Origin: a virus
Lineage: Duplodnaviria; Heunggongvirae; Uroviricota; Caudoviricetes
Direction: 5' to 3' (one strand)
DNA: 22,232 nt
IMG/VR virus record: IMGVR_UViG_2703718827_000007
Positions 1,184 through 22,232 of the stretch are shown here, in pieces (position 1 is the first letter of the stretch; each line of letters opens with the position of its first letter). Below the pieces are notes generated by a model. It was not told the origin of the DNA. It did no database searches and saw nothing but the letters and a program-made list of their open reading frames with translations. The translations under genes and the position numbers were made by a program.

Positions 1184-1219
1184 TTCTGCCTCTCAGATTA
1201 TATAGATAAGCAAAAAGGT

Positions 1220-1393: not shown

Positions 1394-1425
1394 GTATAAC
1401 AGTGTTATACAGTGGTATACTGTAT
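1394..1425 (+). promoter_or_regulatory. Two adjacent inverted repeats (operator-like) upstream of the RHH gene
   Basis: ATAACAGTGTTAT (1394-1406) and ATACAGT-GGTAT-ACTGTAT (1407-1425), 18 bp upstream of the ATG at 1443. This is the typical position for an autoregulated RHH repressor operator. Confidence 0.35.
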
Positions 1426-1442
1426 GGATATTACTCACTGAT

Positions 1443-1898: not shown

Positions 1899-1977
1899 AC
1901 CTGAGTGCCCATTGGAAAACTGCTTGGGCCAATACCTTTATACACCAGCAGGTGGTGACGATGGGTGAGGATCAGGC

Positions 1978-3072: not shown

Positions 3073-3090
3073 CCATCCATGGCTAACCAG

Positions 3091-5196: not shown

Positions 5197-6662
5197 TAAT
5201 CACCCCATAGTGAAGAAAAGTTACTGCTGGCTGCTGGCTGTGATACCTGCTCAGATTGCGGCAATGTCTGCGACGAAGAAGCAGTTCCTCTGTCAACTGC
5301 TGAAATAACCCGCAAAGCATCATAAGTTCGACCAGAAGCAGCTTTCAGCGAATTGAACTGGTTTTCCATCTTCCGGCGCTTGGTATCAATGGTTTTTGTG
5401 GAATCACCAGGCTGAGGGAAATACATTTGATAATATTTGGACATTTCAGCTGGTAGGATAGATGCCCCTGTTTCCTGACGGAGTATTGCCATTATTGCGT
5501 CATTAGCATTAACAACGTATTGCTGCTCTGCTGGGCTGAGCGTTAAGTTAGCCAGCGTCCCATTACCCAAAGCATTATTAATGATCGCCACTCGCTGTGG
5601 GCTAAGCTGGTCTTTCAGTGTATCTATTGAATCAAGAGCATCCCTAACCCTGTATGCAAATCCAGCAGCTTTTTTAGCCCCTTCTGGCGACTTTTCCATG
5701 ATCTTTTGGGCTGTTGGCAAAGCTATTGGACGAAACCCATCTCCAGATATTGGCTGGTTTAGTTTTCCCTGCTCTTCACTTCCGTCTGTGTAGTATTTTG
5801 TGACAGTGCCATCATCGTTTTCTCTAACACTCATTAATTTTTTGGCGTTTGTATTAATTCCAGCCGCTGCCGCAAATGCCGCCGCCCCCTCTGGATCCGC
5901 CTTTAACATTTGCGCGTACTGATTGTAATTCTGCATTGCTGCTGTTGGTGCATATGCTGACGTTAACGCATTTGCTCGGCTAATATCCTGCCCTCTCGCC
6001 TGAAGTGCTTCGCCAGCCTGATTGCTGCGGATTGTCTCTGCCAACTTGCCACGCTCAATATCCCGACCTTCCATTTGATCTTTGATATCGAAATACTTCT
6101 CATGACCGAGAGAAAACAGCGCCAGATTACCTGCGAAATGCTGGAAGCCCTGCGGGTCATTAACCTGCATTTCAGCAATAGTTTCTGGAGGGATACCTAA
6201 ACGACGCATCTCCTGCTCATTATCCATCATGAACCTGCCAAATGCGCCCTGACCAAGCGATGAGGCTACCTGTGCTTTGAGCGCCAGATTGCCATAATCA
6301 TCCCTTTGAGCATCATCGACATAACTCATCCCTTTACGGACTTCCTCAAACTCTTCTGGGAATGCTGTAATAAGATTACGCATCTGCTCCCTGTCACCGG
6401 ACGCATAAGCATCTGCATAACCTTTCTGGAATGCCGCTTTACGCTCCTGCTGTTGCTGCTGCTTATAAATATCAGCAACGCCAGCCAGACCACGAAGACC
6501 TGTCAGAGCAACGTTATTTGCACCTGAGCGAGCCAGTTCATTGTTTTCGCGGATCAGACCAAGCGTTGCGTTAATGTCGCTTGCCTTTGGCGCATTCTCA
6601 TTTTGCGTACCGATGCCAGCCAGAAAACCACCAGAATTAATACCCTGTTGCCACGTAGCCAT
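5196..6662 (-). CDS. Hypothetical 488-aa protein: Gln/Ala-rich, predicted helical or coiled-coil (ORF track extends to a GTG at 6674)
   Basis: ATG at 6662 (MATWQQ...) lies 4 nt after the stop of the 57-aa ORF. Stop overlaps the start of the 701-aa gene, indicating translational coupling. No enzymatic motif recognised. Confidence 0.85.
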   Translation of the reverse strand: MATWQQGINSGGFLAGIGTQNENAPKASDINATLGLIRENNELARSGANNVALTGLRGLAGVADIYKQQQQQERKAAFQKGYADAYASGDREQMRNLITAFPEEFEEVRKGMSYVDDAQRDDYGNLALKAQVASSLGQGAFGRFMMDNEQEMRRLGIPPETIAEMQVNDPQGFQHFAGNLALFSLGHEKYFDIKDQMEGRDIERGKLAETIRSNQAGEALQARGQDISRANALTSAYAPTAAMQNYNQYAQMLKADPEGAAAFAAAAGINTNAKKLMSVRENDDGTVTKYYTDGSEEQGKLNQPISGDGFRPIALPTAQKIMEKSPEGAKKAAGFAYRVRDALDSIDTLKDQLSPQRVAIINNALGNGTLANLTLSPAEQQYVVNANDAIMAILRQETGASILPAEMSKYYQMYFPQPGDSTKTIDTKRRKMENQFNSLKAASGRTYDALRVISAVDRGTASSSQTLPQSEQVSQPAASSNFSSLWGD

Positions 6663-6666
6663 TGAT

Positions 6667-6840
6667 TTACCCACGTCCAGTTAAAGTGTAAGCCAGCGCC
6701 TTATCCATTAATCCCCGAGCAATTTCGTGGATCGTTGGCGCAACTCCTACCTCTGATTTTTTACGCTGCTCCTCCTGAATTTTCTTTATCGCTTCCATTT
6801 GCTTCTCACTTATCAATACTGGCTTTACTGAAATAGCCAT
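6667..6840 (-). CDS. Small 57-aa protein, first gene of the SOS-box operon (possible small DNA-binding or chaperone-like protein)
   Basis: ATG at 6840 preceded by AGGGGG. Translation MAISVKPVLISEKQMEAIKKIQEEQRKKSEVGVAPTIHEIARGLMDKALAYTLTGRG. Below the 60-aa cutoff of the ORF track, so found by manual translation. Confidence 0.45.
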   Translation of the reverse strand: MAISVKPVLISEKQMEAIKKIQEEQRKKSEVGVAPTIHEIARGLMDKALAYTLTGRG

Positions 6841-6854
6841 AACGCCCCCTTAGA

Positions 6855-6872
6855 ACTGTATAAAACAACAGT
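6855..6872. promoter_or_regulatory. LexA (SOS) box ACTGT-N8-ACAGT overlapping the operon promoter
   Basis: ACTGTATAAAACAACAGT matches the CTGT-N8-ACAG consensus with an AT-rich spacer. It lies between a TATAAT -10 (complement of 6875-6880) and the ATG at 6840. Confidence 0.55.
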
Positions 6873-6935
6873 CATTATAGTTTCATAAAACGCAACATTC
6901 ATAATTGTGATTGCAAAATATGAAACAAATAGCAC

Positions 6936-6968
6936 AAAAAAATGCCACCGTTCAGTAGCTGGTGGCAT
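6936..6968 (-). terminator. Rho-independent terminator (minus strand) ending the primase/153-aa transcript
   Basis: On the minus strand an 8-bp GC-rich stem (ATGCCACC...GGTGGCAT, 11-nt loop) is followed by a T7 run. Located 50-85 nt downstream of the stop of the 7021-7479 gene. Confidence 0.55.
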
Positions 6969-7020
6969 CGTTCTGTATGTCAGGTTTTGACAGTTTTTTT
7001 ATGGACTCTAAAAACTATAT

Positions 7021-7479
7021 TTATGGAGTCGCATTACTCTTCATGGCGTGAGCTTTCCTGTTCTCTCTTTGTTCCTGGTTCCATGGATAAGTGTAATTGC
7101 CACCAGCAAAGACCATATTGATTTTGTGAGGAACCATTAAAGCGATATCAGCACTCATGTCACTGAATGAAACACAGTGCAGGCGTTCAAGCCATTTGTA
7201 TGCTGCTGCCGCTTCTCCCCACAAATTAATCCCTGCAAGTTCAACAATATCTCTGATGGAGCAGATATCAACCATCCCGTTAACGCCTGTAAAACGGCGT
7301 TTAAAGTCGCCAAGATACTTTCTGAAAAGAGTTGCTTTCATTGGTTCAGAAAGGTCTATGTATGGGAACACAACCACATCAAGCAGCATCTCCCTTCTGT
7401 TGTTCATCGGTATTACAGATGGCAAATCGGATACTTTGCCAAATACATGATGAAAAGCCTTTGCGATTATCTTCATCAT
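7021..7479 (-). CDS. Hypothetical protein, about 152 aa
   Basis: ORF track start at 7482 is TTG; ATG codons at 7479 and 7476 follow GGGAGA. No family recognised. Confidence 0.6.
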   Translation of the reverse strand: MMKIIAKAFHHVFGKVSDLPSVIPMNNRREMLLDVVVFPYIDLSEPMKATLFRKYLGDFKRRFTGVNGMVDICSIRDIVELAGINLWGEAAAAYKWLERLHCVSFSDMSADIALMVPHKINMVFAGGNYTYPWNQEQRENRKAHAMKSNATP

Positions 7480-7575
7480 CAATCTCCCACTGAAACCAGT
7501 GATGTGGTGTTCAGATTTCGTAAAACACTCTCTAATGCCAGCCAGATGTTGTGCTCATCAATTCAGTCACGTTGT

Positions 7576-7686
7576 GTTGGTTCAAAATGCCGTGTTGTTG
7601 GTTCAGTGTTGGTTCAATAAAAAGAATAAAATCCTTATAAAACAATACTCTTTACAAATTGAACCAACTGAACCAACTGAACCAAC
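7576..7686. repeat. Iteron cluster 2: 3 GTTGGTTCA copies (7576, 7597, 7608) plus 3 tandem TGAACCAAC (7660-7686)
   Basis: Same 9-mer as cluster 1 in mirrored arrangement, immediately 3' of the primase-helicase stop at 7712. Analogous to the ori/crr repeats bound by P4 alpha protein, but with a different repeat unit. Confidence 0.6.
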
Positions 7687-7711
7687 ACCTTTTCTACGCA
7701 CATGAAGAAGC

Positions 7712-10468
7712 TCATTCTTCAGATGAGTTGTAATCTCCTGGCTGGTAATTGAGTACATAAACGTTTATTTGTCGTCCCTGAATACGTGGTGATTTTCTTT
7801 GGTATCCACGACCGCTGTTTGGTGGGGTTAGCATCCCGGCTTTTTTCAACACTTCAGCAAACTGTTTTGCGTTGAAACCACATGCGATCTCCTTTTCAAA
7901 TGTGGCCGGGAATGTGTAGAAAATCATTGGGCTTTCGTCATGTTCTCCACGCTGACGGTATCCGGCTAAATCTTTGATGGGCAAATCTGCCGGGCTGTAT
8001 GGAAATGGTGCAAAACGGCTAAGCCCATAGGCATTAAGAAATGCCTCCGTTTGTTCAATAATCTGCTGATGCTCTTTGTTACCTGTGCCGAACTCGCGCA
8101 ACCATGCGTTATAGCTGTGCTGTATCGCATCACGGCATGTCTGAGCATCCCAGCCTGTTACAACCTCGCCTAACAACAATGCGGCCTCCAGAATGGCAAA
8201 TCGCGCGGCTACACGGTGAACCTGCTCACCATAATCGGATGGGATCAGGCTTCTCCATCTGCTTTCGCAGTCACGAACAGTTTTAATAGCCTGTTGCTGG
8301 TGGTCTGCCAGCCATTTAATCCACTCACGCCCGGACGCGCCGTGGTGATGCTGGTAAGCGTCTTTCAGTGCGTCTGCGTGCTGTTTTCCGTTCTGGTAAT
8401 CGTGAAAGCGTACTGCTTTACTCAACGGAATATTCAGCAGTCGCACCAGTTGCCCGGCTTTGGTTTTTCGCCCGGAAGTAGCGATAAATGTTTCTAAATC
8501 CATTTCTCCGGTGCTGATTGCCACTGTACGCCAGCGTTTTAGATCCCGGTTTCCACCATCTTTAGCGCCTTGCAGTTTCCCTACACCGTTAAATAACGCA
8601 TAGGCAGACTGTGAAACACTGACAGGATCAGCGCCCTGACCAACTTCATCAAGCGGCATTAGTCCGTCATTGTGGGCGGCGGCTTCATTTGCCAGCCCCA
8701 GCGCGGTTCCGTACCACGTCAGCCGCAGTAAATCAGGGTTGCCGTATAAGCTGCTCGCCACGTTTGCCGTGGTGGTCTTACCTGCGCTCGACTGCTCATA
8801 GAAATGAATGCCGAACCCGTCAGCGCCCACCAGCCCAATCAATGGCGCTGCCAGTGCTGCGCCGATCCCGGTCATCATTGAATAGTTACCAAAGGCCAGA
8901 CGCGCCACGTTATCACGCCAGCTTTTCGCGCTCCCTGAGACGGTATATCCGGCTGCGGCTGAGCTTCTCCCGCTGAACAGCACAGGATTTTCAGGTGTTC
9001 CGATGATTTCCCCATCAGGCATGATGTACGCTCCGCATTGCCAGCCAGTGGCATGAGCAACACGCCACAATTCACGAGAGCCACTGCGTTGTAGCCAGTC
9101 TGCCAGTATTGCTCTGAGGCTGCTTTTGGTCGTGACATTTACCCCACCAGCTTTAAGTGTGCGCCATCCTTCACGTTCACCAATATCAGCCAGTGGAATG
9201 GCAGCGGTTGTCGGCGTTTCAGAACCAAACGACAGCCAGCGAAGAATGAGATACTGGTCTTTATCGTCTCTGCCAGTACCGATAACGCTTAACGGAGAAC
9301 ATAACCAGCTTTCGTTATTGATGATTTCTCCACTCTGGCTGTCAGCTCTCGGAGATACCCAATAAATACCATCCTCGCGGCTTTCTATTCTTGGTTTCAG
9401 TGGGTCGGTATCCATAACCTTAAAATCGCTTCCCTCAATGGTCTGTGGCTCCTGTTTCACGCCATTACCCTGTGGTTGGTACATTGACTTATTGAACGCT
9501 TCTGTGGCGCATTTAATGCCGTGTTTTTGGTGGTAATCATTCCAGTCTGCTTTGTGATCTGTCGGGGGTAATGCCACCCATCCAGAAACAGATAAAGCTG
9601 CCTTTTCTGCTGCTATTCTCCCCGTGTTTTGTCTTCCTTCGCTGTGGTCGTTATCCGCAGCAATGATGATTTGTGCTGAAGGAAATTTATCCCGCAGTAC
9701 CTGGGCGACATATAACAGGTTCCCGGCATCAATCGCCGCCACTGTCAGCGCCTCTGGACGAATTAAATGGGCAGATAATGCCGTTGCCAGCCCTTCTGCG
9801 ATTAAGATGCTCTGTGTTGTTTCTGGTGCGTTTATGGCGTGATATGCCCCCCGCTTTGCTGAACCTGTCAGGAGTCTTTTTTCACCATGTGAGGTAATAG
9901 TCTGTGCTGCTGTTACTGCGCCGGATTTATCCACCAGCGCCAGCAACAGAGATCCATCGGGCAACACGGGGAATGTAAAATCACCTACCCCTTTCGCAAC
10001 CAGATAATCAGATTTGCCGTTTACAGCCTTTCTGCGCATGTCATCAAACTGACGGGAAAACGTATCCCGTCTTTGCTGTTCGTCCTTCTCTGCCCTTTTC
10101 AGGCGCTCCTGTTCGCGTCGCTGGCGCTCGGTTTCCAGTTGTTCCCGTTTCTGGCTGGTGGCTTCTGGTGTTTCCGTTGTCCGGTAATCAATACCCAGAA
10201 CATCAGCGGCAAGAAGCGCCGCCTCTGTTGTGTCGCAGTTATTTACGCGTTTAATTAAATCCAGCCCATCACCAGCGCCGCACTGATTACAGATGAAGCT
10301 ACCGCGCCCGTTGTCATCGAACCGGAATCGATCTTTGCCCCCACATGCAGGGCAGGGAGCATGACGGCGCGGAGAGTCAGGGACATTTATGTTCAGGCAG
10401 CCCAGCACATGAGGCCAGTTGTTTTCAGACGCACTGATAACCTGACGGATAAGATCAATGTTTCGCAT
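7712..10468 (-). CDS. P4 alpha-like DNA primase-helicase (zinc ribbon + TOPRIM primase + P-loop helicase + C-terminal DNA-binding region), 918 aa
   Basis: N-terminal zinc ribbon CPACGG...FICNQCG; TOPRIM-like motifs (EGLATALS, IIIAADNDHSEG); Walker A-like SSAGKTT. ATG at 10468 preceded by a GGGGG stretch. Confidence 0.9.
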   Translation of the reverse strand: MRNIDLIRQVISASENNWPHVLGCLNINVPDSPRRHAPCPACGGKDRFRFDDNGRGSFICNQCGAGDGLDLIKRVNNCDTTEAALLAADVLGIDYRTTETPEATSQKREQLETERQRREQERLKRAEKDEQQRRDTFSRQFDDMRRKAVNGKSDYLVAKGVGDFTFPVLPDGSLLLALVDKSGAVTAAQTITSHGEKRLLTGSAKRGAYHAINAPETTQSILIAEGLATALSAHLIRPEALTVAAIDAGNLLYVAQVLRDKFPSAQIIIAADNDHSEGRQNTGRIAAEKAALSVSGWVALPPTDHKADWNDYHQKHGIKCATEAFNKSMYQPQGNGVKQEPQTIEGSDFKVMDTDPLKPRIESREDGIYWVSPRADSQSGEIINNESWLCSPLSVIGTGRDDKDQYLILRWLSFGSETPTTAAIPLADIGEREGWRTLKAGGVNVTTKSSLRAILADWLQRSGSRELWRVAHATGWQCGAYIMPDGEIIGTPENPVLFSGRSSAAAGYTVSGSAKSWRDNVARLAFGNYSMMTGIGAALAAPLIGLVGADGFGIHFYEQSSAGKTTTANVASSLYGNPDLLRLTWYGTALGLANEAAAHNDGLMPLDEVGQGADPVSVSQSAYALFNGVGKLQGAKDGGNRDLKRWRTVAISTGEMDLETFIATSGRKTKAGQLVRLLNIPLSKAVRFHDYQNGKQHADALKDAYQHHHGASGREWIKWLADHQQQAIKTVRDCESRWRSLIPSDYGEQVHRVAARFAILEAALLLGEVVTGWDAQTCRDAIQHSYNAWLREFGTGNKEHQQIIEQTEAFLNAYGLSRFAPFPYSPADLPIKDLAGYRQRGEHDESPMIFYTFPATFEKEIACGFNAKQFAEVLKKAGMLTPPNSGRGYQRKSPRIQGRQINVYVLNYQPGDYNSSEE

Positions 10469-10480
10469 TCTGGCCCCCGT

Positions 10481-11083
10481 TTAGTGCGTCACTGGTGCTT
10501 CTGGGATGCCGTTTTCGTTTAGTTCGGCAATAAAGCTGTTGTGAAGATCGGCAAGCACTTCTCGCCCAAACGAAGTGAGTGTTCCCTGTTCGACATCGAA
10601 CATGTTGCTGTAAAAAATGATGGCATTCTTTGTTCCGACATCAACACCATATTTCTCGATCATTGCGCCCTCAATGTTGTTTGCCATAGCGAGGCGCTCT
10701 GCTACTGGATACAGCGGCATGGCGACGATGCCATTGGAATAAACAGAAACCACGGAATGATTGCCACTGTCATCAATAATGCTGACGGTGCCGTTTTCCT
10801 TTCTCATTTCATTGATGAATGCTGTTGCTATCAGCCAGCGCCACATAATCACGTGATGCTGTGATGTGTAATCGAAATATCCCTGGTTGCCGCCACTGGC
10901 AATAGCGAGATGTATAAACATGCCTTCATCTGGTTTATCGTCATAATCCCCGGCATCCAGACGATTTACGGCATCAATATATGAGACGGTCTCAACGCGT
11001 TCTGTCATGCCATCGTTGCTGCGGTGCATGATGTTTACGCCGTCAGGCGTTGCTTCTGCATGGAAGGTTAAGAAATTATTCAT
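10481..11083 (-). CDS. Hypothetical protein, 200 aa
   Basis: ATG at 11083 overlaps the stop of the upstream ORF (ATGAATAA). Located immediately upstream of the primase-helicase in the same operon. Confidence 0.6.
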   Translation of the reverse strand: MNNFLTFHAEATPDGVNIMHRSNDGMTERVETVSYIDAVNRLDAGDYDDKPDEGMFIHLAIASGGNQGYFDYTSQHHVIMWRWLIATAFINEMRKENGTVSIIDDSGNHSVVSVYSNGIVAMPLYPVAERLAMANNIEGAMIEKYGVDVGTKNAIIFYSNMFDVEQGTLTSFGREVLADLHNSFIAELNENGIPEAPVTH

Positions 11084-11297
11084 GTTTCGCCTCGCCTGAA
11101 TGATTCTGTAACTCATATTTGCCCAACAATTCGTCTGCTTCCTGAATAGCTTCTGGTACGCCATTGAGCAGTGACATAACCGCGCCAATCATTAACTTGT
11201 CTCTGTTGCTGGGGCTGGCCCCTTCAAGCCAGAACCCTAAAACAGTCTGAACCTGTTCGATGCGACATTGCGCTTCAATGAGCTGGATGTTGGTCAT
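11076..11297 (-). CDS. Hypothetical small protein, 73 aa
   Basis: ATG at 11297 overlaps the upstream stop (ATGA), indicating translational coupling. Confidence 0.55.
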   Translation of the reverse strand: MTNIQLIEAQCRIEQVQTVLGFWLEGASPSNRDKLMIGAVMSLLNGVPEAIQEADELLGKYELQNHSGEAKHE

Positions 11298-11557
11298 TTC
11301 GCACTCTCCACATCGATTAAACTGATATCTATCAGGGAGGTAACTTTTTGTAGCCAGCTATTGATTACTGTCGCCTGTTCCCCTCCCACCGAGGGAATAA
11401 TCTCATTCATCACATGAACCAGACCTGTGCGCGCTCTGGTAAGCCGTTCAGTCGCGCAATCTGCGGGAGTGAATGTGTCTGGATATGGCTCTTCGCGCCC
11501 CAGCAATGATTCAATTTCCAGCTCACACGGATGACGATAAATTAAGTTGATATTCAT
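11294..11557 (-). CDS. Hypothetical small protein, 87 aa
   Basis: ATG at 11557 overlaps the upstream stop (ATGA). Confidence 0.55.
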   Translation of the reverse strand: MNINLIYRHPCELEIESLLGREEPYPDTFTPADCATERLTRARTGLVHVMNEIIPSVGGEQATVINSWLQKVTSLIDISLIDVESAK

Positions 11558-11748
11558 TTTTCACCCCCAAGAATTACCAGCTCGGCACGGGCATCGTTAA
11601 CCAAAGATGAGCACGCTTTAATCGCATCCACGACATCAGCAGCGTCCATTTCTTCAGCCGAAAGACTGACAGCAACCAGGACAGCCGCTGCTTGCTCGAT
11701 TAATTGAAGTGCGGACGTAAGGCGAGGGGTATTAATTGAGTTATTCAT
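11554..11748 (-). CDS. Hypothetical small protein, 64 aa (ORF track lists the longer 11554-11805 version)
   Basis: ATG at 11748 ([10 protein letters not shown]...) overlaps the stop of the upstream frame (ATGAATAA) and follows a G-rich stretch. Confidence 0.5.
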   Translation of the reverse strand: MNNSINTPRLTSALQLIEQAAAVLVAVSLSAEEMDAADVVDAIKACSSLVNDARAELVILGGEK

Positions 11749-12808
11749 TGGTTGCCCCCGTTTTGCATGGCATTTGTCCACCTTCCAGCAGGAAATGAAC
11801 GTCACGAACGGCGAGATCCAATATCGCGAGTAACGCCTTCAGTTTTTCGTCTCGTGAGGGAGAGTTGCTCACCAGAATGTCATTAATCACTTCTGTCAGT
11901 GTGATGATCTGGCTTGTGCGTTCGAGGGGATCCATATGCACATCGTAGGTTTTAATCATGTGCCACCTCCATGCGGATACGACCAGCAAAAAAGCAGACG
12001 TGATCGCGCACCAGAGAACGGCGAGCATCGCGTTCAGACTCGGCAGCAATATGATGAATTTTGGCGGTAATTGTCGGGCAATCGCGGCGAACTGCGGCGA
12101 TAATCCAGATAAATTGCGGTTTTTGGGTAGGGGTAGTAGCCAGCATGTGGCAGCCTCCATTCGATAGCATGTAACGCTACCACCGGAAACGCCAATTTCG
12201 CTGGTGGTAGCCCAGACAGGGTTGGCGTAACCGGCTCGAATGGATACCGGCGCTTCCGAAGAAGCCCCTGCCTGAGCCACCATTGATTGACAAAGGCGCT
12301 GGATTATACACCAACGCCCAAAAAATGGGTGAGTCAGACCTACGACATAAAAAAAGACGCTCGGCGCGTCATATGTCGCCATTCGATTTACCAGGACGCC
12401 AATCCCGGCACCCGTTTTATGAGGTGCCTTATAACCATAAACCGTGTTGCCGCATAACGGCAAGCTCTTTTTTATGGACTCCGAAAACTCACTATTGGAA
12501 GAACCAGAAGCACAGTACATCGCGCTCATTTCGTTAACGTCACGCGCGTGGACGAAGGTTTTTGTGGAGTCACTACGCGAGCAGAGAAAGCCATCTACGA
12601 CCAGAAATTCTCTGGCGCAGCCGCTGACCTTCTCAACGCTAACACCATCGACCGTAATTTCTGACATAGTTAAGGCATCCGCTCCTACCACCAGCAAATG
12701 ATAAACTTTGCTTGTATCTGCTGTATTAATGCCTGACTTTGCTGTCATATTGCTGGATTTTGGCGACATACCAGCCAGTGAAAATGTCTTCTTCTGGGCG
12801 GTTAGCAT
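11741..12808 (-). CDS. Hypothetical protein; 355-codon open frame with ambiguous internal organisation
   Basis: ATG at 12808 overlaps the stop of the 60-aa gene (ATGCTAA). The N-terminal two-thirds looks protein-like; the middle (about 11960-12170) is Leu/Pro-rich and looks out of frame. A strong internal start (GGAGGTGGCAC-ATG at 11958) would give a 72-aa product, and an alternative-frame ORF at 11952-12170 has its own GGAGG-ATG. Possibly a frameshifted gene or two to three genes. Confidence 0.4.
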
Positions 12809-12984
12809 TTGTTAACCTCCGCGAACTCCTTCATGAAACGTGCCAGCGGTTGTACGCATGGCGATTGATACCCGTCGCGATAAAACGTCACTCGGTTGTG
12901 AGACACGCTTTCGACAGTAACGAGTGCTCCGTGGGCATCTTTGTAGCGTTTTTGAGGTTGTGGTGTTCCTGTCGGCTTAAACAT
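12802..12984 (-). CDS. Hypothetical small protein, 60 aa
   Basis: ATG at 12984 preceded by GGAGG, 3 nt after the stop of the 277-aa gene. The ORF track extends it to 13071, overlapping the upstream gene. Confidence 0.45.
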   Translation of the reverse strand: MFKPTGTPQPQKRYKDAHGALVTVESVSHNRVTFYRDGYQSPCVQPLARFMKEFAEVNKC

Positions 12985-13810
12985 GGACCGCCTCCAGACG
13001 CTTAGCGAGCCAGCGTTGCGACAGGCGGGTGAGTTCTCCTTTGCGCTGCTCATATTCCATGCCCATATCAATTAACGTGATATTGGTGCTTTCGAGATAT
13101 GAGAGGTGCTCAAGCTGTTCTGCGTTCATATGGTCGCGAGGTTCGCCAGAATAGCCATTTATCCGCGCCCACTGCTTAGCAGTTAGCCCACCAAGAACGA
13201 TACGAGAAATCATATTGCTCTCGTTTGTGTAGTGGTGTTGCTGCGTCGTTTTCCCCATCTCGGCACGGGCCATATTCAGCGCATCGCACATTGGCTTAAA
13301 GTTGTTTGCGGCACTGATACGGGCTTTTAGCTGGCGACGATAGCGGGCGGCGATTTCAGGCACGCTACGCTGTAATTCTTCCTCGCACTGGATGAAATAA
13401 CGGCGGATAGCGCGCCCCTGATCATTGCGTTCGATCATTGCCAGTTCTTTCGCCATTCCGACACTTAACAGATAGTCTTTGCCGGGTCTTCCAGACTGCT
13501 TAATCTTGCTGTAAGCCGCGCCATTCGGGATTTTCCCCAAATTTGGGGAAATAGTTTTATGGACTGAGTAATCGTGCCCAATGGTGAAGTCATATTCAGA
13601 GATGCGATCAGTGATCCATGTAGAGAAGTCTTTTCCCACGCCCAACGCTTTGTGTAACGCTTTTGCGCTAACAATATTGGTTTCACGCCCACCGATATGA
13701 CCAGGAATAACCGGGACAATTGCGGCAAATTCATTACCGTTAATTGTGCCCAGAGAGGCGTTCAGATGAGGGGCAGCCTCAGAAATTAATCTGCTTTTTT
13801 CGATGTTCAT
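12977..13810 (-). CDS. Prophage protein, 277 aa, possibly antirepressor/KilA-C-like
   Basis: ATG at 13810 preceded by GGAG. Segments (NIVSAKALHKALGVGKDFSTWITDRI, GRPGKDYLLSVGMAKELAM, RRYFIQCEEEL) are reminiscent of phage antirepressor-type domains; recollection only. Confidence 0.6.
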   Translation of the reverse strand: MNIEKSRLISEAAPHLNASLGTINGNEFAAIVPVIPGHIGGRETNIVSAKALHKALGVGKDFSTWITDRISEYDFTIGHDYSVHKTISPNLGKIPNGAAYSKIKQSGRPGKDYLLSVGMAKELAMIERNDQGRAIRRYFIQCEEELQRSVPEIAARYRRQLKARISAANNFKPMCDALNMARAEMGKTTQQHHYTNESNMISRIVLGGLTAKQWARINGYSGEPRDHMNAEQLEHLSYLESTNITLIDMGMEYEQRKGELTRLSQRWLAKRLEAVHV

Positions 13811-13822
13811 TTTCAGTCTCCG

Positions 13823-14254
13823 TTAGGCGGCGTTAAACGCGTCCGGGTAGAGTTTCAGAATGTCGGCAATTTCCTGCTGAGAAAGTCCGTTGTGATCATT
13901 TATGTTCGCAAGATGGTTAATATGAGTGATCACTTTCAGAACATCACCACGGCAGGAGAAACGGTAGCGAAGGTGTGTTCCGATACCATCAGGATTCTTT
14001 TCGTCGATACGCTCCAGAGTGATTCCGAGCTGGCGTTCTAACTCTGTTGCATAGTTACGACCAGAAGACAGACGGCAGTAGCGAAGAATGTCATTTTCTG
14101 TCCATCCCTCTATACCAGTACGCAGCATATAGACTCGGGCACGATGCTTTTTCGGCGTGCGCTTTGGTGCTTGAAGGGATTTTGTCAGGGGCGTAACATC
14201 AGATACGCGAATATCTGAATTAGCCGCCTGTAATGGGCGGTTTTTCTTTTCCAT
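13823..14254 (-). CDS. Hypothetical prophage protein, 143 aa
   Basis: ATG at 14254 shares its A with the alpA stop (TGATG). No family recognised. Confidence 0.6.
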   Translation of the reverse strand: MEKKNRPLQAANSDIRVSDVTPLTKSLQAPKRTPKKHRARVYMLRTGIEGWTENDILRYCRLSSGRNYATELERQLGITLERIDEKNPDGIGTHLRYRFSCRGDVLKVITHINHLANINDHNGLSQQEIADILKLYPDAFNAA

Positions 14255-14457
14255 CAGGCCACCTCGTCTCTAGATTCTAATATACACTTCTCAATCCATT
14301 CATCTATTTCAGACTCAACAAAAGCAATTGCCCGACTTCCAATTTTTACCTGTTTAGGGAACCTCCCCTGACTAATAAGACGATAAATCCATGCTTTGCT
14401 ATAACCAGTTCGCCTTTGAACTTCAGAGAGACGAATTAATGAATTGTAATTAGCCAT
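14254..14457 (-). CDS. alpA: AlpA-family phage transcriptional regulator (excisionase-like winged HTH), 67 aa
   Basis: MANYNSLIRLSEVQRRTGYSKAWIYRLISQGRFPKQVKIGSRAIAFVESEIDEWIE is a classic AlpA/Xis-type HTH. First gene of the operon downstream of int. Confidence 0.8.
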   Translation of the reverse strand: MANYNSLIRLSEVQRRTGYSKAWIYRLISQGRFPKQVKIGSRAIAFVESEIDEWIEKCILESRDEVA

Positions 14458-14543
14458 TTATTAATATCCTGTACTAATGACGCAATAACCCCCTCCTGCA
14501 ACGAATGGCGAGAGTTTTATTTGCGTCAAATGTCGAATACGCC

Positions 14544-14578
14544 AAAGACCACAATATGAAAAACATATTGCGGTCTTT
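14544..14578. promoter_or_regulatory. 15-bp inverted repeat (operator or RNA hairpin) in the int-alpA intergenic region
   Basis: AAAGACCACAATATG-aaaaa-CATATTGCGGTCTTT, 14/15 complementary, about 90 nt upstream of the alpA start. Not followed by a T-run on the minus strand, so more likely an operator than a terminator. Confidence 0.3.
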
Positions 14579-14884
14579 TATAAAAGATAGTCAGATTGTT
14601 TTGGTTTGTTTGCTCCACAAGGGTAGAGCTACCCTGCATTTCGGCAGGATCACGCTATTAGGCGTGACATCCAGTAGTTTTAAAGAACAATTGCGCTTTG
14701 TCAGCGCCAAAGCCTGTTAAAGAACATTCCGCTTTTCAGCAGCGTAGAAGGCTCAATACACCTTCGTTTATAAAAGAGCGATTGCCCTTCTCCAGGGCTA
14801 ACTGTTAAATAGCAATCCTCTGTGAGTTTTTATCAATCTACTCCCCTATACTTTAGTAAACCTCTGTATACTTGTCCAGTTGTT

Positions 14885-16099
14885 TCATGCGTGTTTTTCA
14901 AACACCATATGCACCACATTTCCGCCATGCTCGAGAGAATCCATATAGTCGGCATACCATTGAAGCATCTCCCGCCGTCCATCCAGATATTGCGCATGGT
15001 TGTATGTGCCACGAATTGAGTTCTTATCAACGTGAGCGAGCTGCGTTTCTATCCACGCGGTGTTATAGCCCTGCTCATGCAAAATCGTGCTCATAGTGTG
15101 TCGGAACCCATGACCAGTTACACGTCCAGCGTAGCCAATGCGCTTAAACACTTGGTTTATGCTGGCCTCACTCATTGTTTTCCTTGGATCATTGCGCCCG
15201 GGAAACATAAGAGGGTAATTGCCTGTTATTTCTCTAATCTTCCCAATAAGCGAAAGAGCCTGCTCAGACAATGGCACAATATGAGGCCGCCGCATTTTCA
15301 TACGTGAAGCGGGTATCTCCCATATAGCCTTGTTGAAATCAATTTCATCCCATAATGCGCCACGTAGTTCGCCAGTTCGCAAGCCGGTGATAATCAGTAG
15401 GCGAGCCGCCATAACAACCAATGCGCTTCCTGAGTAACTGGATAATGCCTTGAAAAAATCAGGTAATTCTTTGGTCGTAAGGAAAGGGTAATGATTAGAT
15501 TCATGGCCTTGCATCGCGCTAGTAAGGTCTGGTGCAGGGTTATACTCTGCGCGACCAGTGACTATTGCATAGCGGAAAACTTCCCCGCACCGCTGCCTCA
15601 CTTTTTTGGCTTTTTCTGTCGCACCGCGCCCCTCGATGCGCCGCAGCACATTCAGAAGTTCAAGTGGTTTGATTTCGGCGATTGGTTTTTTGCCAATGTA
15701 AGGGAACACATCTTTGTTGAAGGCTTCGAGGATGTCTGAAGCATAACCAGCAGACCATTTTTTTAATTTGCTGCTGTGCCACTCAAGGGCAATATCTTTG
15801 AAGGTGTTGTTTAACTGCGTTTCCCGGGCAATCTTTTCCTCTCGTTTCGCTTCCATCGGATCGATACCACCAGCGATACCTCTTTTCGCATCTTCACGTT
15901 TTGCCCGAGCATCGGCTAGAGTAACCTCAGGATACACACCTAGTGCCAATAGCTTCTCTTTACCAGCTACACGATATTTAAGTCGCCAGTATTTACCTCC
16001 ATTAGGTTTTACCAAGAGATACAAACCGCCACCATCGGCCAGCTTGTAAGCCTTCTCTTTTGGCTTGGCTGTGTCTATTTGACGGGCATTGAGTTTCAC
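14885..16099 (-). CDS. int: P4-type tyrosine integrase (site-specific recombinase), 404 aa
   Basis: N-terminal arm-binding-type region (KLADGGGLYLLVKPNGGKYWRLKYR) and C-terminal catalytic region with the conserved HGFRHT and terminal Tyr context. GTG start at 16099 preceded by GGAGGT. Adjacent to the tRNA-Thr 3' fragment. Confidence 0.9.
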   Translation of the reverse strand: MKLNARQIDTAKPKEKAYKLADGGGLYLLVKPNGGKYWRLKYRVAGKEKLLALGVYPEVTLADARAKREDAKRGIAGGIDPMEAKREEKIARETQLNNTFKDIALEWHSSKLKKWSAGYASDILEAFNKDVFPYIGKKPIAEIKPLELLNVLRRIEGRGATEKAKKVRQRCGEVFRYAIVTGRAEYNPAPDLTSAMQGHESNHYPFLTTKELPDFFKALSSYSGSALVVMAARLLIITGLRTGELRGALWDEIDFNKAIWEIPASRMKMRRPHIVPLSEQALSLIGKIREITGNYPLMFPGRNDPRKTMSEASINQVFKRIGYAGRVTGHGFRHTMSTILHEQGYNTAWIETQLAHVDKNSIRGTYNHAQYLDGRREMLQWYADYMDSLEHGGNVVHMVFEKHA

Positions 16100-16101
16100 T
16101 T

Positions 16102-16247
16102 GGGGGTACCTCCACTAAACCGAACAGCAAATACCCCCATAAGTACCCCCATCTGACCGTAGATTTTGAGGGACTTTAGTAGACGTCAAAAGACGAACGG
16201 GGCTTTAATACGTGGATTATAAGGGGTTTTGAAAGACTTTAGTAGAC
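16102..16247. promoter_or_regulatory. Integrase arm-type repeat region: GGGGGTA (16102-16108), TACCCCCA x2 (16132-16151), GACTTTAGTAGAC x2 (16172-16184, 16235-16247)
   Basis: Direct and inverted short repeats between the int start and the att core. The TACCCCCA pair is duplicated at the distal end (616-635). Confidence 0.35.
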
Positions 16248-16264
16248 TTGGGGAGATGTTTGAA

Positions 16265-16310
16265 TGGTGCCGATAATAGGAGTCGAACCTACGACCTTCG
16301 CATTACGAAT
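16265..16310 (-). pseudogene. 3'-terminal 46 nt of a tRNA-Thr (thrW-like, anticodon CGT), prophage attachment-site remnant
   Basis: The minus strand reads ATTCGTAATGCGAAGGTCGTAGGTTCGACTCCTATTATCGGCACCA: anticodon loop TTCGTAA, T-stem GTAGG/CCTAT, T-loop TTCGACT, acceptor strand plus CCA. No matching 5' acceptor (GCCGATA) or D-arm upstream, so the tRNA is truncated at position 31. Identity to thrW is from memory. Confidence 0.7.
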
Positions 16311-16700
16311 TATAAGAATCCGCTTCTAATTCAAAGCATTACCCCATCAACACTGCGCTCACACGTCCCACCACATCAAAACATGTAAAGCCTTGCAAGC
16401 CATTGTGAGGCCTTATGTGTCTCAGTTTTGTCCCACCTTGTATTACGACTTGCATAGCCAATGAAGATCAACGTGACGACAAACGGCGCAGCAGTCTTCT
16501 TTTCCTTCATACTTTCCCTTCCCCTTCCCCACCATGCATACTTTTCTGCCATAACTAAAGTGAATGCCTGTTATAAGCAATAAACAGGCATTAGCGCCGC
16601 TAGCATATTAGCTACCATTCGACTGCCACACTTAAGATTGATTTCTTAAGTATAACCCGGTTTCTAATACCACTTATATATTCAGCTCTGAGATTCATTT

Positions 16701-19700
16701 TTATCTCGTAAAATTAGTTTTATGACTTCCTGTTAGCTGACTGTCTTCATAATAAAATGCCCCACTAAACTCCTGTCGACCATAATGATGACTTGATGTG
16801 AGTGAGCCCCCTATAACACCTTTTTCACCTAATAATGTCCAAACGATTTCAAAACCATTGTCCCTTAACATTGTTAAAAATGGTTCTTTTTTAACAAGTA
16901 GATGCGGCTTTGAAGCATATACAGCTTCAGCTGCAAAGCAAACCATAGTTCCATTTTCATCATTGAAGCTACCCTCTACTTCCCCATTTTTTAAGCCCAT
17001 CTTTTCAAAGATTAAGTTGCTAGGCTTCAAAAAATTCAAAGCTTCTATTTTTGATTTGTCGAACTCCTCTCCCCACAAATAATTAATCGAAGTGACACTA
17101 ACATCAGCTATCTTAGCTCCAGACTCCCGGTCTGTTACCGAAGTCCAGTCAGAACCACCATAATAATCTGATTTAAAAGACTTAAATGCTTCGGACCAAT
17201 AGTACTCCCTATTAAATAATTGGTATCTATCAGTACATTCCGGCATCCACCTGCCCATAAAGTCTTGAGCTATTGCCCAACATCTAAAATTTTCAAATTC
17301 TTGAACTTTAACGATATAACTTCTGATCTGATACCAAACCTCTTTTCGTGGGTGCCCCCAATCATCGTTTCCAATAATTTTTGGTTCTTTCCATGATGGA
17401 TAACTTTCTAATACTATCCATTCATCACCATTATCATCTTTAACTTCAATCAAAGCATATGGATTAGTTATAGTAGTAGAGCTTTTAACCCAGTCTTCAT
17501 TAGAGCAAGTCCAATCAAACACTTCATCATTAAGCCACCACATTTCTTTATTGCTTATTTTTTTCGTCCCAGTTTCTTTAAGTAAGATAGTGGGATCTAT
17601 ATCTCTTACGTAAGGCTCCCATGGCCCTTGGTATGGGTTTTCCTTTCGGTCGTCACCATAACCTTCAAAACGAATAAAATTATCGGCTAGCCTTGCCATG
17701 TATTCATAATAAGCAATCCATTGGTATTTTTTACCAATCCGTTCTTGGAATTCCTCTCTACGTCCACGTCCAGTTCCTATTTGTTGATCAAAATCACCAT
17801 GCTTCTCCGGATCCCAACCAAGTTCCAGAACACGATTGAATATAAATTGTTGAGCTAGTCGAAGATCAAAGTGTTTATCAGTTTCCAGCAGATTATTATT
17901 ATGATCTAGGTATGGCTCTATTTCATTTTCAAACTCACTTAACAGATCGTATGACAATGAATTCTTAAATAGCTTCTTGCTCGCCTTTATTTCTTCCTGT
18001 GCTTTTCTACCGACCACGCTACCAAATTTAATTCCTTCACATTTATCATCATAAATGAAAGGATCTGTAGCATCATACAATTTTTTTTGTTGGTCAGTTA
18101 GTTTACATTTGAAAGTTTTAAAAATTTTCTTACGGTCAATAGGAGTTTCATTAAACTTGCAACCAGACCAATCAGAATGATTGTAATTTGTTCCAATGGT
18201 ATATCGTGAAAAGTCACCACCTCCCATAATCGAGCTCCAGAGTGCCCGATAAGGTTCTTTATTATAAAGAGACTCTAGTTCCTCTTTTGGAGGAATCTCG
18301 TCAGGCCAAATGCTGTTGTAGGGTGGCCTAGTCTTGGATAATTCAATACTTTCAAGTTCCAGTCCAAGATGATTAGCAAATTCAATAATCTCTCTCGCAT
18401 AATCTCTAAGTAATATATTTGGATACACAGACTCAGAACAAAATACCTTTTGGTAAACAGTTTCGGCTAAATATTTTAGTTCTTTAATATTATCAGTTCG
18501 CAATGTACAACCCAATGCAACTGCAAATATTCTTTCCCAAACGTAAGGATCATTTACACCATAAAACTTATCAATTATTTTTCTCAATACAGGAATTCTT
18601 GGCTCGAGTAAACTCACTAAAGCCTTGGTTGAGCAATCTCGAAGTTCTCGGTTACTAGAAGTTAAAAACCAGCATAAACTAGTTGCAACTAGCTCGATTG
18701 ACTCATCCGAAACGAAGCTTTTATCTGTTCTGCCCCATGCCCAATCGATTAGATGCCTAAATGCTGAGTCTTCACTATATTTATATTTAAGTTTTGTAGT
18801 CCAACACGAATCTCGATTTCCCAAAGAGTAATCTTTTAGCCAATCATGCAAGAAATTAGCATTAAAGGGATGGTCAACTAAACCTGAAATAGAGATCACT
18901 GCCTCGAGAAAATGATCAAAACTACCTTTAAATTTAAAAACATGTTCATTGATGAAAGGTCTGATTTTTTCGAAATCAATAGCCTTAATATCTCGCCATA
19001 TCAAGCTATCAATAAAGGCTTCTAGTAATTTATGATTATTGCTGAACTCCGGCAGAAATTCATAAAGCTCTTTTCCATACTTTTCTGGCAATTGAATAGA
19101 AAGCGCCTCAACTATTCCCGAGTTTGTATAAAAATCACATTCATCATGAAAATATTTTTTCAGACGACCATCTGACTTAAATTCATTTTCGATATTTTCA
19201 ACATCATTTAATAAAAAATTAACGGTTAAATGATCATCAAACCTTTCAAAAGCCACATGAACTACTTCCTCAGTAGCATTATCATTATTTCTCACTATGC
19301 CTTTAGTCAATAATCCTTCGTCAATCAAGGCGCTGAGGAAATTTTTATCTGTAACATAATCATTAACTACAGATTGAACCACTGAGTGAGCATCTCTAAG
19401 TGAAATACTATTACTACCAATCTCTAATTTGAATTTTATGATTTCGTTGAGAGCATCTTTTACAAGAGGAAAACTGGGATCGAAATCATATTTTTTTGGC
19501 GATGCCAATGATTTATTCACCCCTTCCACTAAAAAGTTAAAAATATTTGAAATCCCATTAAACCCAACAGGTACTTTGGTTAAACCATTTTTCTTAATGC
19601 CTTCACACAATAACTTAAGAAATAGAGGGTTTTTAAACTCTGGATTAAGATTAGGTGATGAAGGCCTCTCTATATTGTAATAATCATAAAATAGACTAAC

Positions 19701-21155
19701 CGCTTCTAACTCAACATTCTGAAATCCAATATGTTCATGAATTTCAAAATTATTTCGCTCAACATTCTCATGTGAAATTGTTACATTTCTATATGTTGTT
19801 CTGACTGACATTATCAGACCAAGCCATTCAAAGCATCTGATTTCATCGACAAAACTGTTAATATTGTCATTCCAGAATTTATTTCCATTACCTTCATTAA
19901 TAGCATCAATGAAAACCAAGACTCTTTTTCCTGTTTTTTTGCCATATAAATTCAGTTTTTCCAGGAATTCACGAGAAGTGATTTTAAGCTGTAATCTCTT
20001 GAAGATCTGTGACCATGGAGATTCATCTGAAGTAAGTTGTTGCCCTAGTATGAGTAGAGAAGGATATCCAGAAGCAATTCGATTTTTAATCACATCAGCC
20101 AGTAAATGAGACTTACCAATTCCAGCTTTTCCTTCGAGAAGTAAGAATGGGTTGTTAGCCAACTTTACTGTTGTTGAATTAATGAATGTACGTAATTCAT
20201 TGCACGCATAGTCAAGTTCCCGAAGCATTCGCAGAGTAGATGAATACTTATCACTGTAATGCTTGGTTTCACCTACTTGTTCTGACTTTTCTCGGAGTTC
20301 CCACAATATTGATTCCGCTCCGCCAATAGCTGTCTGGCAGCTGTCAACATAGTTATTAAATTTATTTATAGGAATTTGATCTAATTTAGAAAAATTAAGC
20401 TCTTGATATATATCCGCAATTTGATTTAAGGACTCGTCTATTACAGATAATTCTGAGTAAATTACATCGCAACTATGTAACCTCTTTCTAGTCATCAGAA
20501 AATTATCTATATGTGAGTAAAATATTTTAGCAAAATCATCAGTTCTACCGAGACCATCAAATATCTCTGCTATTTCTAGCTTTACGTTGAGTTCGGGTGT
20601 GTATCGGCCTCCCAAGTCAGCTATTGCTTGACTATTTTTTTCATTTAACCAACCATCACTCAAGTGAAAAGTTAGTTTGTCATCTATAGACCGCAAAATA
20701 AGTTTAACTTGAATAAGCTCTTCATTAATATCGAATATTTTTTCTTTATACGTTTCTTCGATATGTAGCTTTTTTAACTTCGAACAATTATTGATTTTTA
20801 ACGATAACATCTCATAAAAAAGGCTGAGTTGTTGTTGAGTTGGGGGGGTGATGCTTGGATATTCTTTGAACTTGTCTAATAATATCCCTTTGTCAGGGAA
20901 CTCTTTAAACAAGATGTGTTCATTCAACATCTCAAACAATGGTTCAGAATGATAAAATGGAATTGCTCCACTTTCTACTGGATATGTTTCTTCAAACTCA
21001 ATTGCCGTCTCTTCAATTAGTTGATATAATCTATCCACATATCTTTTTTGGGGGAATAATGCTTTCTTAATACAACCATATCCTTCTTGAGAGATGAATT
21101 GATCAATAAGTTTAGTTGCTACATAAGTTGCCACTGTAATTGATATAGGTTCCAT
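16701..21155 (-). CDS. NACHT/STAND-like P-loop NTPase, 1484 aa, with unassigned N-terminal (about 335 aa) and C-terminal (about 950 aa) domains; candidate antiphage defence protein
   Basis: Walker A GKAGIGKS (residues 342-349, nt about 20109-20132); Walker B-like VLVFIDAINEG (residues 412-422), close to the NACHT hhhhD-x-h-[DN]-E pattern. The gene is markedly AT-rich compared with the P4-like region and sits between the att remnant and an invertase gene. Confidence 0.85.
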   Translation of the reverse strand: MEPISITVATYVATKLIDQFISQEGYGCIKKALFPQKRYVDRLYQLIEETAIEFEETYPVESGAIPFYHSEPLFEMLNEHILFKEFPDKGILLDKFKEYPSITPPTQQQLSLFYEMLSLKINNCSKLKKLHIEETYKEKIFDINEELIQVKLILRSIDDKLTFHLSDGWLNEKNSQAIADLGGRYTPELNVKLEIAEIFDGLGRTDDFAKIFYSHIDNFLMTRKRLHSCDVIYSELSVIDESLNQIADIYQELNFSKLDQIPINKFNNYVDSCQTAIGGAESILWELREKSEQVGETKHYSDKYSSTLRMLRELDYACNELRTFINSTTVKLANNPFLLLEGKAGIGKSHLLADVIKNRIASGYPSLLILGQQLTSDESPWSQIFKRLQLKITSREFLEKLNLYGKKTGKRVLVFIDAINEGNGNKFWNDNINSFVDEIRCFEWLGLIMSVRTTYRNVTISHENVERNNFEIHEHIGFQNVELEAVSLFYDYYNIERPSSPNLNPEFKNPLFLKLLCEGIKKNGLTKVPVGFNGISNIFNFLVEGVNKSLASPKKYDFDPSFPLVKDALNEIIKFKLEIGSNSISLRDAHSVVQSVVNDYVTDKNFLSALIDEGLLTKGIVRNNDNATEEVVHVAFERFDDHLTVNFLLNDVENIENEFKSDGRLKKYFHDECDFYTNSGIVEALSIQLPEKYGKELYEFLPEFSNNHKLLEAFIDSLIWRDIKAIDFEKIRPFINEHVFKFKGSFDHFLEAVISISGLVDHPFNANFLHDWLKDYSLGNRDSCWTTKLKYKYSEDSAFRHLIDWAWGRTDKSFVSDESIELVATSLCWFLTSSNRELRDCSTKALVSLLEPRIPVLRKIIDKFYGVNDPYVWERIFAVALGCTLRTDNIKELKYLAETVYQKVFCSESVYPNILLRDYAREIIEFANHLGLELESIELSKTRPPYNSIWPDEIPPKEELESLYNKEPYRALWSSIMGGGDFSRYTIGTNYNHSDWSGCKFNETPIDRKKIFKTFKCKLTDQQKKLYDATDPFIYDDKCEGIKFGSVVGRKAQEEIKASKKLFKNSLSYDLLSEFENEIEPYLDHNNNLLETDKHFDLRLAQQFIFNRVLELGWDPEKHGDFDQQIGTGRGRREEFQERIGKKYQWIAYYEYMARLADNFIRFEGYGDDRKENPYQGPWEPYVRDIDPTILLKETGTKKISNKEMWWLNDEVFDWTCSNEDWVKSSTTITNPYALIEVKDDNGDEWIVLESYPSWKEPKIIGNDDWGHPRKEVWYQIRSYIVKVQEFENFRCWAIAQDFMGRWMPECTDRYQLFNREYYWSEAFKSFKSDYYGGSDWTSVTDRESGAKIADVSVTSINYLWGEEFDKSKIEALNFLKPSNLIFEKMGLKNGEVEGSFNDENGTMVCFAAEAVYASKPHLLVKKEPFLTMLRDNGFEIVWTLLGEKGVIGGSLTSSHHYGRQEFSGAFYYEDSQLTGSHKTNFTR

Positions 21156-21677
21156 GATTAGCTTCTTCCAATAATTAAAATTTTACCAAGCGTTTATGCC
21201 TTACAATATGTATTGTATCTCACCGTAAAACATATTTATGTGGTTTTAAACCTATCTGTAAATCTTGCCACCTTGGCAAGAACCTAATCCTACATTTTAA
21301 TATCAGTCTATATAATATAGCCAGTGTCATAATAATCGGGCTTGTCATAGTTAAGTATTCGCCTCCGATATCCCAATGAGATAAGTAAGTCATCAGTGTT
21401 ATAAATGAAAAGATCACATTTTTCAAAGAGTTATTATGATGGAATATTATTCAAAACGCAATGTAGCTGAAACGAGTCTGAGTTTAACATCCGCTCCTAG
21501 TACATAGTAGTCCCAGGGACAGTGGCGTAAAGTCATAGATGGCCGGTGGGAGGTGGTGGAAATCCTCTCATGCAAAAAATACATAAAATCGATAACGGCT
21601 GGAAATCATTCAATACTCGCACCATCGAAAGTTCACCAGCCAACCGCGCACGATCTTGCATACGACATGCTACGGTT

Positions 21678-22232
21678 TCATTTATCTCCGACCGGAAACT
21701 TCTTATACAGTGTCGATACTCCAACATCATAGATGATCGCCACCTTCTGGCGAGGAACGCCTGATGCAATTAATCGCCCGGCCTGCGCCCATTGTTCTGG
21801 TGTAAGTTTGGGACGACGTCCACCAATTCGTCCCTGTGCGCGAGCAACTTCCAGTCCAGCTTTTGTTCGTTCAACAATCAGTTCTCGTTCCATTTCAGCC
21901 AGGGCACCCATCACATGAAAGAAAAAACGCCCCATCGGTGTGCTGGTATCAATAGCATCCGTCAGGCTGCGAAAATTAACGCCACGTTCGCGCAACTCCT
22001 CAACCAGAATGACCAGATGCCGCATACTACGCCCCAGCCGATCCAGCTTCCAGACAACCAGAGTGTCACCTGCCGATAATGTCCTGAGCAGTTTTTTCAG
22101 TCCCGGCCTTTCGGACTTTGTACCGCTTATCTTGTCTTCAAAAATCAGCTCGCATCCTGCACAGTTCAGCGCATTACGTTGTAGATCTGTGTTCTGGTCA
22201 TTTGTTGACACACGTACATAGCCAATAAGCAT
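21678..22232 (-). CDS. Serine recombinase, Hin/Gin/Pin-family DNA invertase, 184 aa
   Basis: MLIGYVRVSTNDQNTDLQRNAL...VVWKLDRLGRS...MGRFFFHVMGALAEMERELIVERT...GVSTLYKKF has the catalytic Ser region and C-terminal HTH typical of Hin/Gin/PinE. The start codon is the last triplet of the window. Confidence 0.9.
   Translation of the reverse strand: MLIGYVRVSTNDQNTDLQRNALNCAGCELIFEDKISGTKSERPGLKKLLRTLSAGDTLVVWKLDRLGRSMRHLVILVEELRERGVNFRSLTDAIDTSTPMGRFFFHVMGALAEMERELIVERTKAGLEVARAQGRIGGRRPKLTPEQWAQAGRLIASGVPRQKVAIIYDVGVSTLYKKFPVGDK

Follow-up and report, generated by a model that had tools for sequence, protein, structure and literature searches.

When the gene of a DNA invertase lies beside a defence gene, phase-variable immunity suggests itself, and the question is whether the recombinase acts on its neighbour or on another substrate. 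We followed this question in a stretch of 22,232 nucleotides of viral DNA (the window throughout), in which a pin-type invertase gene lies upstream of a STAND gene. A preliminary description had left two options: that the invertible segment lay beyond the window end, upstream of the invertase start at 22232, or that the invertase acted on the promoter of the STAND gene. Crossover sites were found to flank a tail-fibre segment, the spacer between the two genes is fixed and the cargo next to it varies; we are therefore highly confident that Pin is the tail-fibre invertase of a thrW-integrated prophage and avs2 a separate cargo cassette with its own upstream region. For phase-variable Avs2 defence the result was negative, as comparison of the available genomes does not support it, and the adjacency of the two genes is positional.

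The invertase gene and the defence gene

The Hin/Gin/Pin-type invertase gene reported upstream of the STAND gene was confirmed, and found to be complete, by its open reading frame of 555 bases, which begins with an ATG formed by the last three letters of the window (ending at 22232), by Pfam and by alignments with Gin and PinE. Pin combines an N-terminal resolvase catalytic domain carrying the catalytic serine (Resolvase, 3.4e-51, residues 3-135) with a C-terminal helix-turn-helix (HTH_7, 3.6e-14, residues 138-180), the architecture of a small serine recombinase. It shares 176 of 184 residues (96%) with PinE of the K-12 element e14 and aligns over its full length with Mu Gin (PDB 3UJ3; E = 5e-93), the catalytic serine lying in MLIGYVRVSTNDQ and the motif YVRVSTNDQ aligning with Gin. 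We read the gene as the PinE-type serine invertase of an SfV/e14-like prophage that has a Mu-type baseplate and tail and is integrated at the thrW site. Systems of this type are expected to have a Fis-dependent recombinational enhancer within the 5' part of the invertase gene; a scan of pin with a Fis pattern too degenerate to be informative returned a single strict hit (gene position 71) besides several looser ones.

The STAND gene encodes EcAvs2. The protein scores 1692.8 bits with the NCBIfam Avs2 equivalog model NF041813 (cut-off 1000) and 1751 bits with the PADLOC Avs2 model, and it matches the EcAvs2 cryo-EM entry (AVAST type 2, PDB 9O4E) over residues 1-1484 of 1484 with 3281.7 bits. 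At the protein level no difference was detected, and what is described here is the genomic context alone. EcAvs2 is a STAND NTPase that senses the phage large terminase, then oligomerises and kills the cell, and it is active and confers defence when carried on a plasmid with its native promoter (PMC13601566). Pfam gave no match on the whole protein. The NCBIfam Avs2 model begins only at residue 178, leaving residues 1-177 (window 20625-21155) outside it; the literature calls the N-terminal effector uncharacterised, and the cryo-EM structure did not resolve it (PMC13601566). The features of the locus, including those located in relatives beyond the window end, are collected in Table 1.

Table 1. 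Coordinates of the features discussed (window positions unless L001 is named; L001 = window + 3740)
Feature	Position	Strand	Basis or remark
Prophage attachment-site core, 3' fragment of thrW-like tRNA	16259-16306	-	48-bp direct repeat with L001 7836-7883
Perfect 10-bp hairpin AATGCCTGTT-(10 nt)-AACAGGCATT	16555-16590	-	~110 bp past avs2 stop
avs2 (EcAvs2), STAND NTPase anti-phage sensor of phage large terminase, 1484 aa	16701-21155	-	NCBIfam, PADLOC, PDB match
AT-rich region upstream of avs2	21156-21573	-	33-39% GC vs ~50% in pin; 3 short palindromes
Conserved ~100-bp sequence directly after pin stop	21574-21677		Recurs at prophage late-module ends
pinE-type DNA invertase gene, intact, 184 aa	21678-22232	-	Pfam, PinE/Gin alignment, RefSeq pinE annotation
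Proximal crossover site TTTTCATAAACGTTGGTTTGGGAGAA, 26 bp	L001 26027-26052 = window-equivalent 22287-22312		~55 bp beyond window end
Distal crossover site TTCTCCCAAACCAAGGTTTTCGAGAG, 26 bp	L001 27972-27997 = window-equivalent 24232-24257		~2.0 kb beyond window end

The spacer between pin and avs2

An AT-rich intergenic region of 520 bp had been reported between the two genes; the gap and its AT-richness hold, and its length is corrected here to 522 bp (21156-21677). Both palindromes named in that account lie where it had placed them (TCTTGCCA-CCT-TGGCAAGA at 21263-21281 and CTATATAATATAG at 21308-21320), and a third, TACAATATGTATTGTA, was found at 21202-21217. They exceed chance expectation only weakly: of 1000 dinucleotide-shuffled versions of the spacer, 70 (7%) contain a perfect 8-bp stem. 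The palindrome at 21263-21281 is imperfect in six of nine related copies, which carry A rather than C at 21268 and no compensating change; the remaining two palindromes are disrupted in the lineage of L007. Being neither significantly enriched nor conserved, and lacking compensatory change, the palindromes were rejected as functional elements. Folding of the avs2 leader RNA was likewise unremarkable (z = -2.0), and an Rfam scan of the spacer returned no family, the best hit (CssrB, E = 0.43) falling far under its gathering score.

Crossover sites were sought with the exact e14 site and with the family consensus TTNTCNNAAACCNNGGTTTNNGANAA, using a search tool that allowed up to 3 mismatches and a script that extended to 5 and beyond; neither query yielded a site in the spacer. 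At up to 3 mismatches the consensus has no match anywhere in the window, in agreement with the earlier remark that the recombination sites are not visible in it. The best match in the entire window has 5 mismatches and lies at 3625, and the best one around the spacer (21106-21727) has 7 mismatches in 18 positions, the value most common in shuffled sequence (248 of 500). A search for inverted repeats from 16000 to 22232 returned 63 weak pairs of the sort expected from AT-rich sequence, none of them bracketing the spacer. The longest pair touching it (16003-16024 with 21213-21234, 82%) was rejected as a product of chance because one of its arms lies inside the integrase gene of a neighbouring element that is missing from other avs2 loci.

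The promoter of avs2 is presumed to sit in the AT-rich part of the spacer, at a position that we can only infer because a consensus scan of the minus strand found no sigma-70 promoter reaching the scan threshold. The remaining part of the spacer, directly after the pin stop, is of a different kind: its sequence has matches in roughly 2250 (more than 2000) E. coli genomes, and its minus-strand RNA folds better than shuffled versions (z = -2.9). Two junctions at which the cargo changes between prophages, at 21642 and 21669, fall within it, and we suggest for this sequence a putative role as a hinge at which cargo cassettes differ. A further copy is present in the chromosomal spacer between ecpE and ykgJ (L001 783-869).

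Crossover sites and inversion of the tail-fibre segment

The window is E. coli DNA, and the E. coli strain Z0117EC0040 (NZ_CP098211), which continues past the pin ATG, is 99.98% identical to window positions 16261-22232. In that genome pinE is followed by an open reading frame for an alternative tail-fibre C-terminus and a tail-fibre assembly gene, and further on by a second assembly gene (tfaE) on the opposite strand, the tail-fibre gene, ymfQ and Mu-type baseplate genes. The top inverted repeat of the extended locus comprises 20 nt with 95% complementarity and arms 1917 nt apart, and a consensus search of 46 kb found two sites and no more, where chance would give 0.02. They stand in inverted orientation and share the central dinucleotide AA/TT, the pin-side copy (given as TTCTCCCAAACCAACGTTTATGAAAA) lying about 55 bp upstream of the pin ATG and the other (TTCTCCCAAACCAAGGTTTTCGAGAG) inside the tail-fibre gene. 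Both are identical to the pair that flanks the P segment of e14 in K-12, and the e14 repeats quoted in the literature (PMC12529663) are contained within both site sequences.

The same pair, and no other, was present in every pin-bearing locus that was fetched, and loci devoid of pin have none. Wherever this Pin is encoded, the sites lie upstream of the pin start and flank the alternative tail-fibre C-termini with their assembly genes. In the relatives, the suggestion that the invertible segment lay beyond the window end has thus proved correct, with paired 26-bp sites upstream of 22232 on either side of a tail-fibre segment. As the window stops at the pin ATG, the segment is not seen in the source genome itself; we infer from relatives with 100% identity over the shared 6 kb that this genome probably carries the same segment past 22232. 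Draft contigs with pin and avs2 (L020 1-123, L021 1-103 and four similar places) end 77-97 bp past the proximal site. Contig ends within the invertible segment would be expected if the segment were heterogeneous or repeated in those genomes, and a related cause may lie behind the end of the window at the start codon of pin.

Inversion itself is evident from two isolates, L014 (LM997040.1) and L017 (CP098211), that carry the same prophage with the segment in opposite orientations and with breakpoints at the site centres. As deposited, the two differ by 1424 mismatches over 11.9 kb; after an in-silico flip between the site centres, 3 SNPs remain over the same distance. Over the shared part the window is 100% identical to the former and has one mismatch to the latter. 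Among the other loci, five (L003, L006, L007, L012 and L015) have the segment as it stands in L001 and three (L004, L005 and L013) have it flipped, and in all of these (L003-L007, L012, L013 and L015) the 5' end of avs2, the spacer and pin are collinear whichever way the segment is turned. A flipped query found a single-piece match of 97.7% (H96), and the unflipped query matched H37-H43; the alternative tail-fibre ends vary between strains. PinE-driven inversion of the e14 P segment in culture is experimentally established (PMC4272514; PMC12529663).

We take the substrate of Pin to be this tail-fibre segment of about 1.95 kb, starting 55 bp beyond the window end. Pin binds the two 26-bp sites, exchanges strands at their shared central dinucleotide and flips the segment, a step shown here by the comparison of genomes and for e14 by experiment. 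The constant N-terminal portion of the tail fibre is thereby fused to either of two alternative C-termini; this receptor-binding end is exchanged together with its assembly chaperone. The outcome is host-range or surface variation, as for the Mu G, P1 C and e14 P segments.

Two side observations concern the segment in individual strains. An IS3-family element lies within the invertible segment at L004 13220-14397 and L013 3596-4773, where the segment is flipped; this strain is the closest to the window after Z0117EC0040. At L007 12269-12867 (NZ_CP068155.1) the tail-fibre segment beside avs2 and pinE is truncated, and its far side carries a second pinE in the opposite orientation, together with a proximal-type crossover site and, from another prophage, the AraC/GIY-YIG cargo. 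The same arrangement is likely in H8-H20. This constellation points to recombination of two different prophages at their pix sites or pin genes, and possibly to a large chromosomal rearrangement.

A cargo slot at the prophage end

The distribution of the spacer separates avs2 from the invertase. The part from 21156 to 21500 occurs only in avs2-bearing genomes, 87 complete E. coli genomes with one copy each, and in all 87 it is collinear with the 5' end of avs2 in one piece, as it is in nine of nine aligned copies. Pin adjoins the spacer in only 26 of these genomes, leaving 61 in which no collinear pin lies beside it. In the ST131 strain MB1341 and the bovine strain CE0011b (L008 and L009), a block corresponding to 16259-21669, which comprises the attachment-site core, avs2 and the whole spacer and ends 9 bp short of the pin stop, lies at the end of lambdoid prophages and follows immediately on J, lom, stfR and tfa; neither an invertase nor a crossover site was found at these two loci. 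Three other genomes, including L002, have kept avs2 and the spacer but have lost pin along with most of the tail-fibre region.

Conversely, the same Pin is accompanied by other cargo: an AraC protein and a GIY-YIG protein in L003, with junctions at window positions 16580 and 21642, a DUF6602 protein in L016, and DinI with a protein of 437 aa in L018; in K-12, McrA occupies the slot after PinE. The cassette has a GC content of 30-39%, against about 50% in its flanks. Its distinct composition, its conserved flanks, its replacement in related prophages and its presence in unrelated ones are the features of a moron cassette. From these comparisons, avs2 with some 490-510 bp upstream forms an independent, swappable cargo cassette (moron) at the thrW-side prophage end, and the cassette, about 5.1-5.4 kb in length, is self-contained and moves between SfV/e14-like and lambdoid prophages. 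It occupies a variable slot, bounded on one side by the late or tail-fibre module and on the other by the attachment site, and avs2 is presumably expressed in the lysogen from a promoter of its own within the AT-rich spacer. A megablast search for avs2 in sequenced phage genomes matched the attachment-side flank alone and not avs2 itself. The hairpin past the avs2 stop, seen by eye, falls on the left cargo junction (16580) and is a putative terminator of the avs2 cassette; the terminator scan missed it because its loop exceeds 8 nt.

These data allow the other readings of the locus to be weighed. The least probable of them is the one raised in the preliminary description, in which Pin would invert a promoter-bearing piece of the spacer in the manner of fimS or hin and thereby render Avs2 defence phase variable. 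The adjacency and common orientation of pin and avs2, with 522 bp of AT-rich sequence and its short palindromes between them, fit this reading, as does the frequent occurrence of recombinases beside defence genes (PMC12529663). However, the palindromes are not conserved, the spacer holds no crossover-type site (and the window none within 3 mismatches), no repeats or sites bracket it (21106-21727), and the 87 complete genomes show it in a single orientation relative to avs2. Nor is the linkage of avs2 to pin consistent, given the 61 genomes with no collinear pin and the two lambdoid examples devoid of invertase and sites. What is found instead is a tail-fibre segment with paired sites wholly upstream of 22232, next to a region (21156-21677) that is uniform among the 87 genomes. 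The preliminary description had itself named this outcome as its refutation, and at the level of comparative genomics the action of the invertase on the STAND promoter is refuted. Somewhat less remote, and still highly improbable, is the idea that pin is here an orphan remnant which, its segment having been deleted beyond the window end, has no substrate and does nothing. The window does end at the ATG with the segment out of sight, and decay occurs at this locus, as seen from the deletion in L002 and the truncated segment in L007. Against this, the reading frame is intact, loci encoding an identical Pin protein have both sites in all 8 sufficiently long contexts and the proximal site in 2 truncated contigs, and over the shared region the window matches the two isolates between which the segment is inverted.

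A more indirect coupling, in which transcription would run through from pin into avs2 and the orientation of the segment or autoregulation by Pin would tune the Avs2 level with no inversion of a promoter, seems to us very unlikely. The two genes have the same orientation, and a consensus scan of the minus strand between them found no intrinsic terminator, that is, no hairpin with a T-run, so that some read-through from pin into avs2 is conceivable; in addition, the proximal site lies just ~54 bp upstream of the pin ATG, and this reading would place the pin promoter at or across it. A consensus scan of the region upstream of pin, however, detected no pin promoter spanning the site, and the structured conserved sequence after the pin stop may halt transcription. 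The cassette also occurs with the same upstream region in contexts devoid of pin (L008 and L009), and when placed on a plasmid with its native promoter it confers defence (PMC13601566). We give a similarly small chance to the broader view that either such transcriptional coupling exists or tail-fibre inversion and Avs2 make up, at the end of the prophage, the two layers of one co-selected defence module; tail-fibre inversion is reported to block adsorption of T2 in K-12 (PMC12529663).

With Pin taken as a tail-fibre invertase and avs2 as separate cargo, the locus combines elements that are already known, namely PinE with a P-type tail-fibre segment, a defence gene next to it that is itself known, and a cargo slot of a familiar kind. 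The nearest counterpart is e14 of K-12, which, in addition to the 96% identical invertase and the two identical 26-bp sites, has the same gene order (ymfQ, the constant tail-fibre portion, two alternative C-termini and their chaperones, and pin) and likewise places a defence gene between pin and the attachment site. The two differ in that e14 carries mcrA in the slot, which here holds the 4.5-kb avs2, and in that e14 is a remnant integrated in icd, whereas the present element uses a thrW-type site and is a complete SfV-like prophage, not a remnant, in some strains. The Gin/G system of Mu, Cin/C of P1 and Hin/H of Salmonella share with it a small serine invertase with a C-terminal HTH and inverted 26-bp imperfect palindromes of the type TTxTCxxAAACC-NN-GGTTTxxGAxAA. 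In Mu and P1, as in e14 and here, the switch exchanges coding ends, those of the tail fibre; what Hin flips is a promoter.

The serotype-converting Shigella phages SfI, SfII, SfIV and SfV resemble the prophage in another respect. They share its baseplate and tail module at 96-97% identity, the attachment-site core region matches the att region of SfIV at 98.3%, and they too carry accessory genes between the tail-fibre genes and the attachment site. In the Sf phages, however, this slot is filled by the gtrABC genes for O-antigen modification rather than by pin and avs2, and SfIV has no annotated invertase gene. The tail-fibre end next to the attachment site unites a classical host-range switch with a slot for McrA, Avs2, the GIY-YIG protein, the DUF6602 protein, DinI or, in the Sf phages, the gtr genes, and the locus supplies a natural context for EcAvs2, a protein of solved structure.

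The end of the pin/avs2 prophage is marked by the attachment-site core, which reads ...GGTTCGACTCCTATTATCGGCACCA on the minus strand and at which ARAGORN predicts no complete tRNA. To its left lies a separate P4-like mobile element (window 1-16258) with an integrase of its own (14885-16099). Its genes include those for AlpA-like, AntA and Ash proteins and a TOPRIM/DUF927 primase (7712-10468), and the primase is followed by P22-type ejection-protein genes (3091-6674). Since this element is found in other strains in the absence of avs2 (H24-H29), the elements are stacked in tandem at the thrW-side attachment site. Within the P4-like element, upstream of the Ash-family gene, Rfam recognised the C4 antisense RNA (79.5 bits) and isrK (67.1 bits) on the minus strand at 12200-12427.
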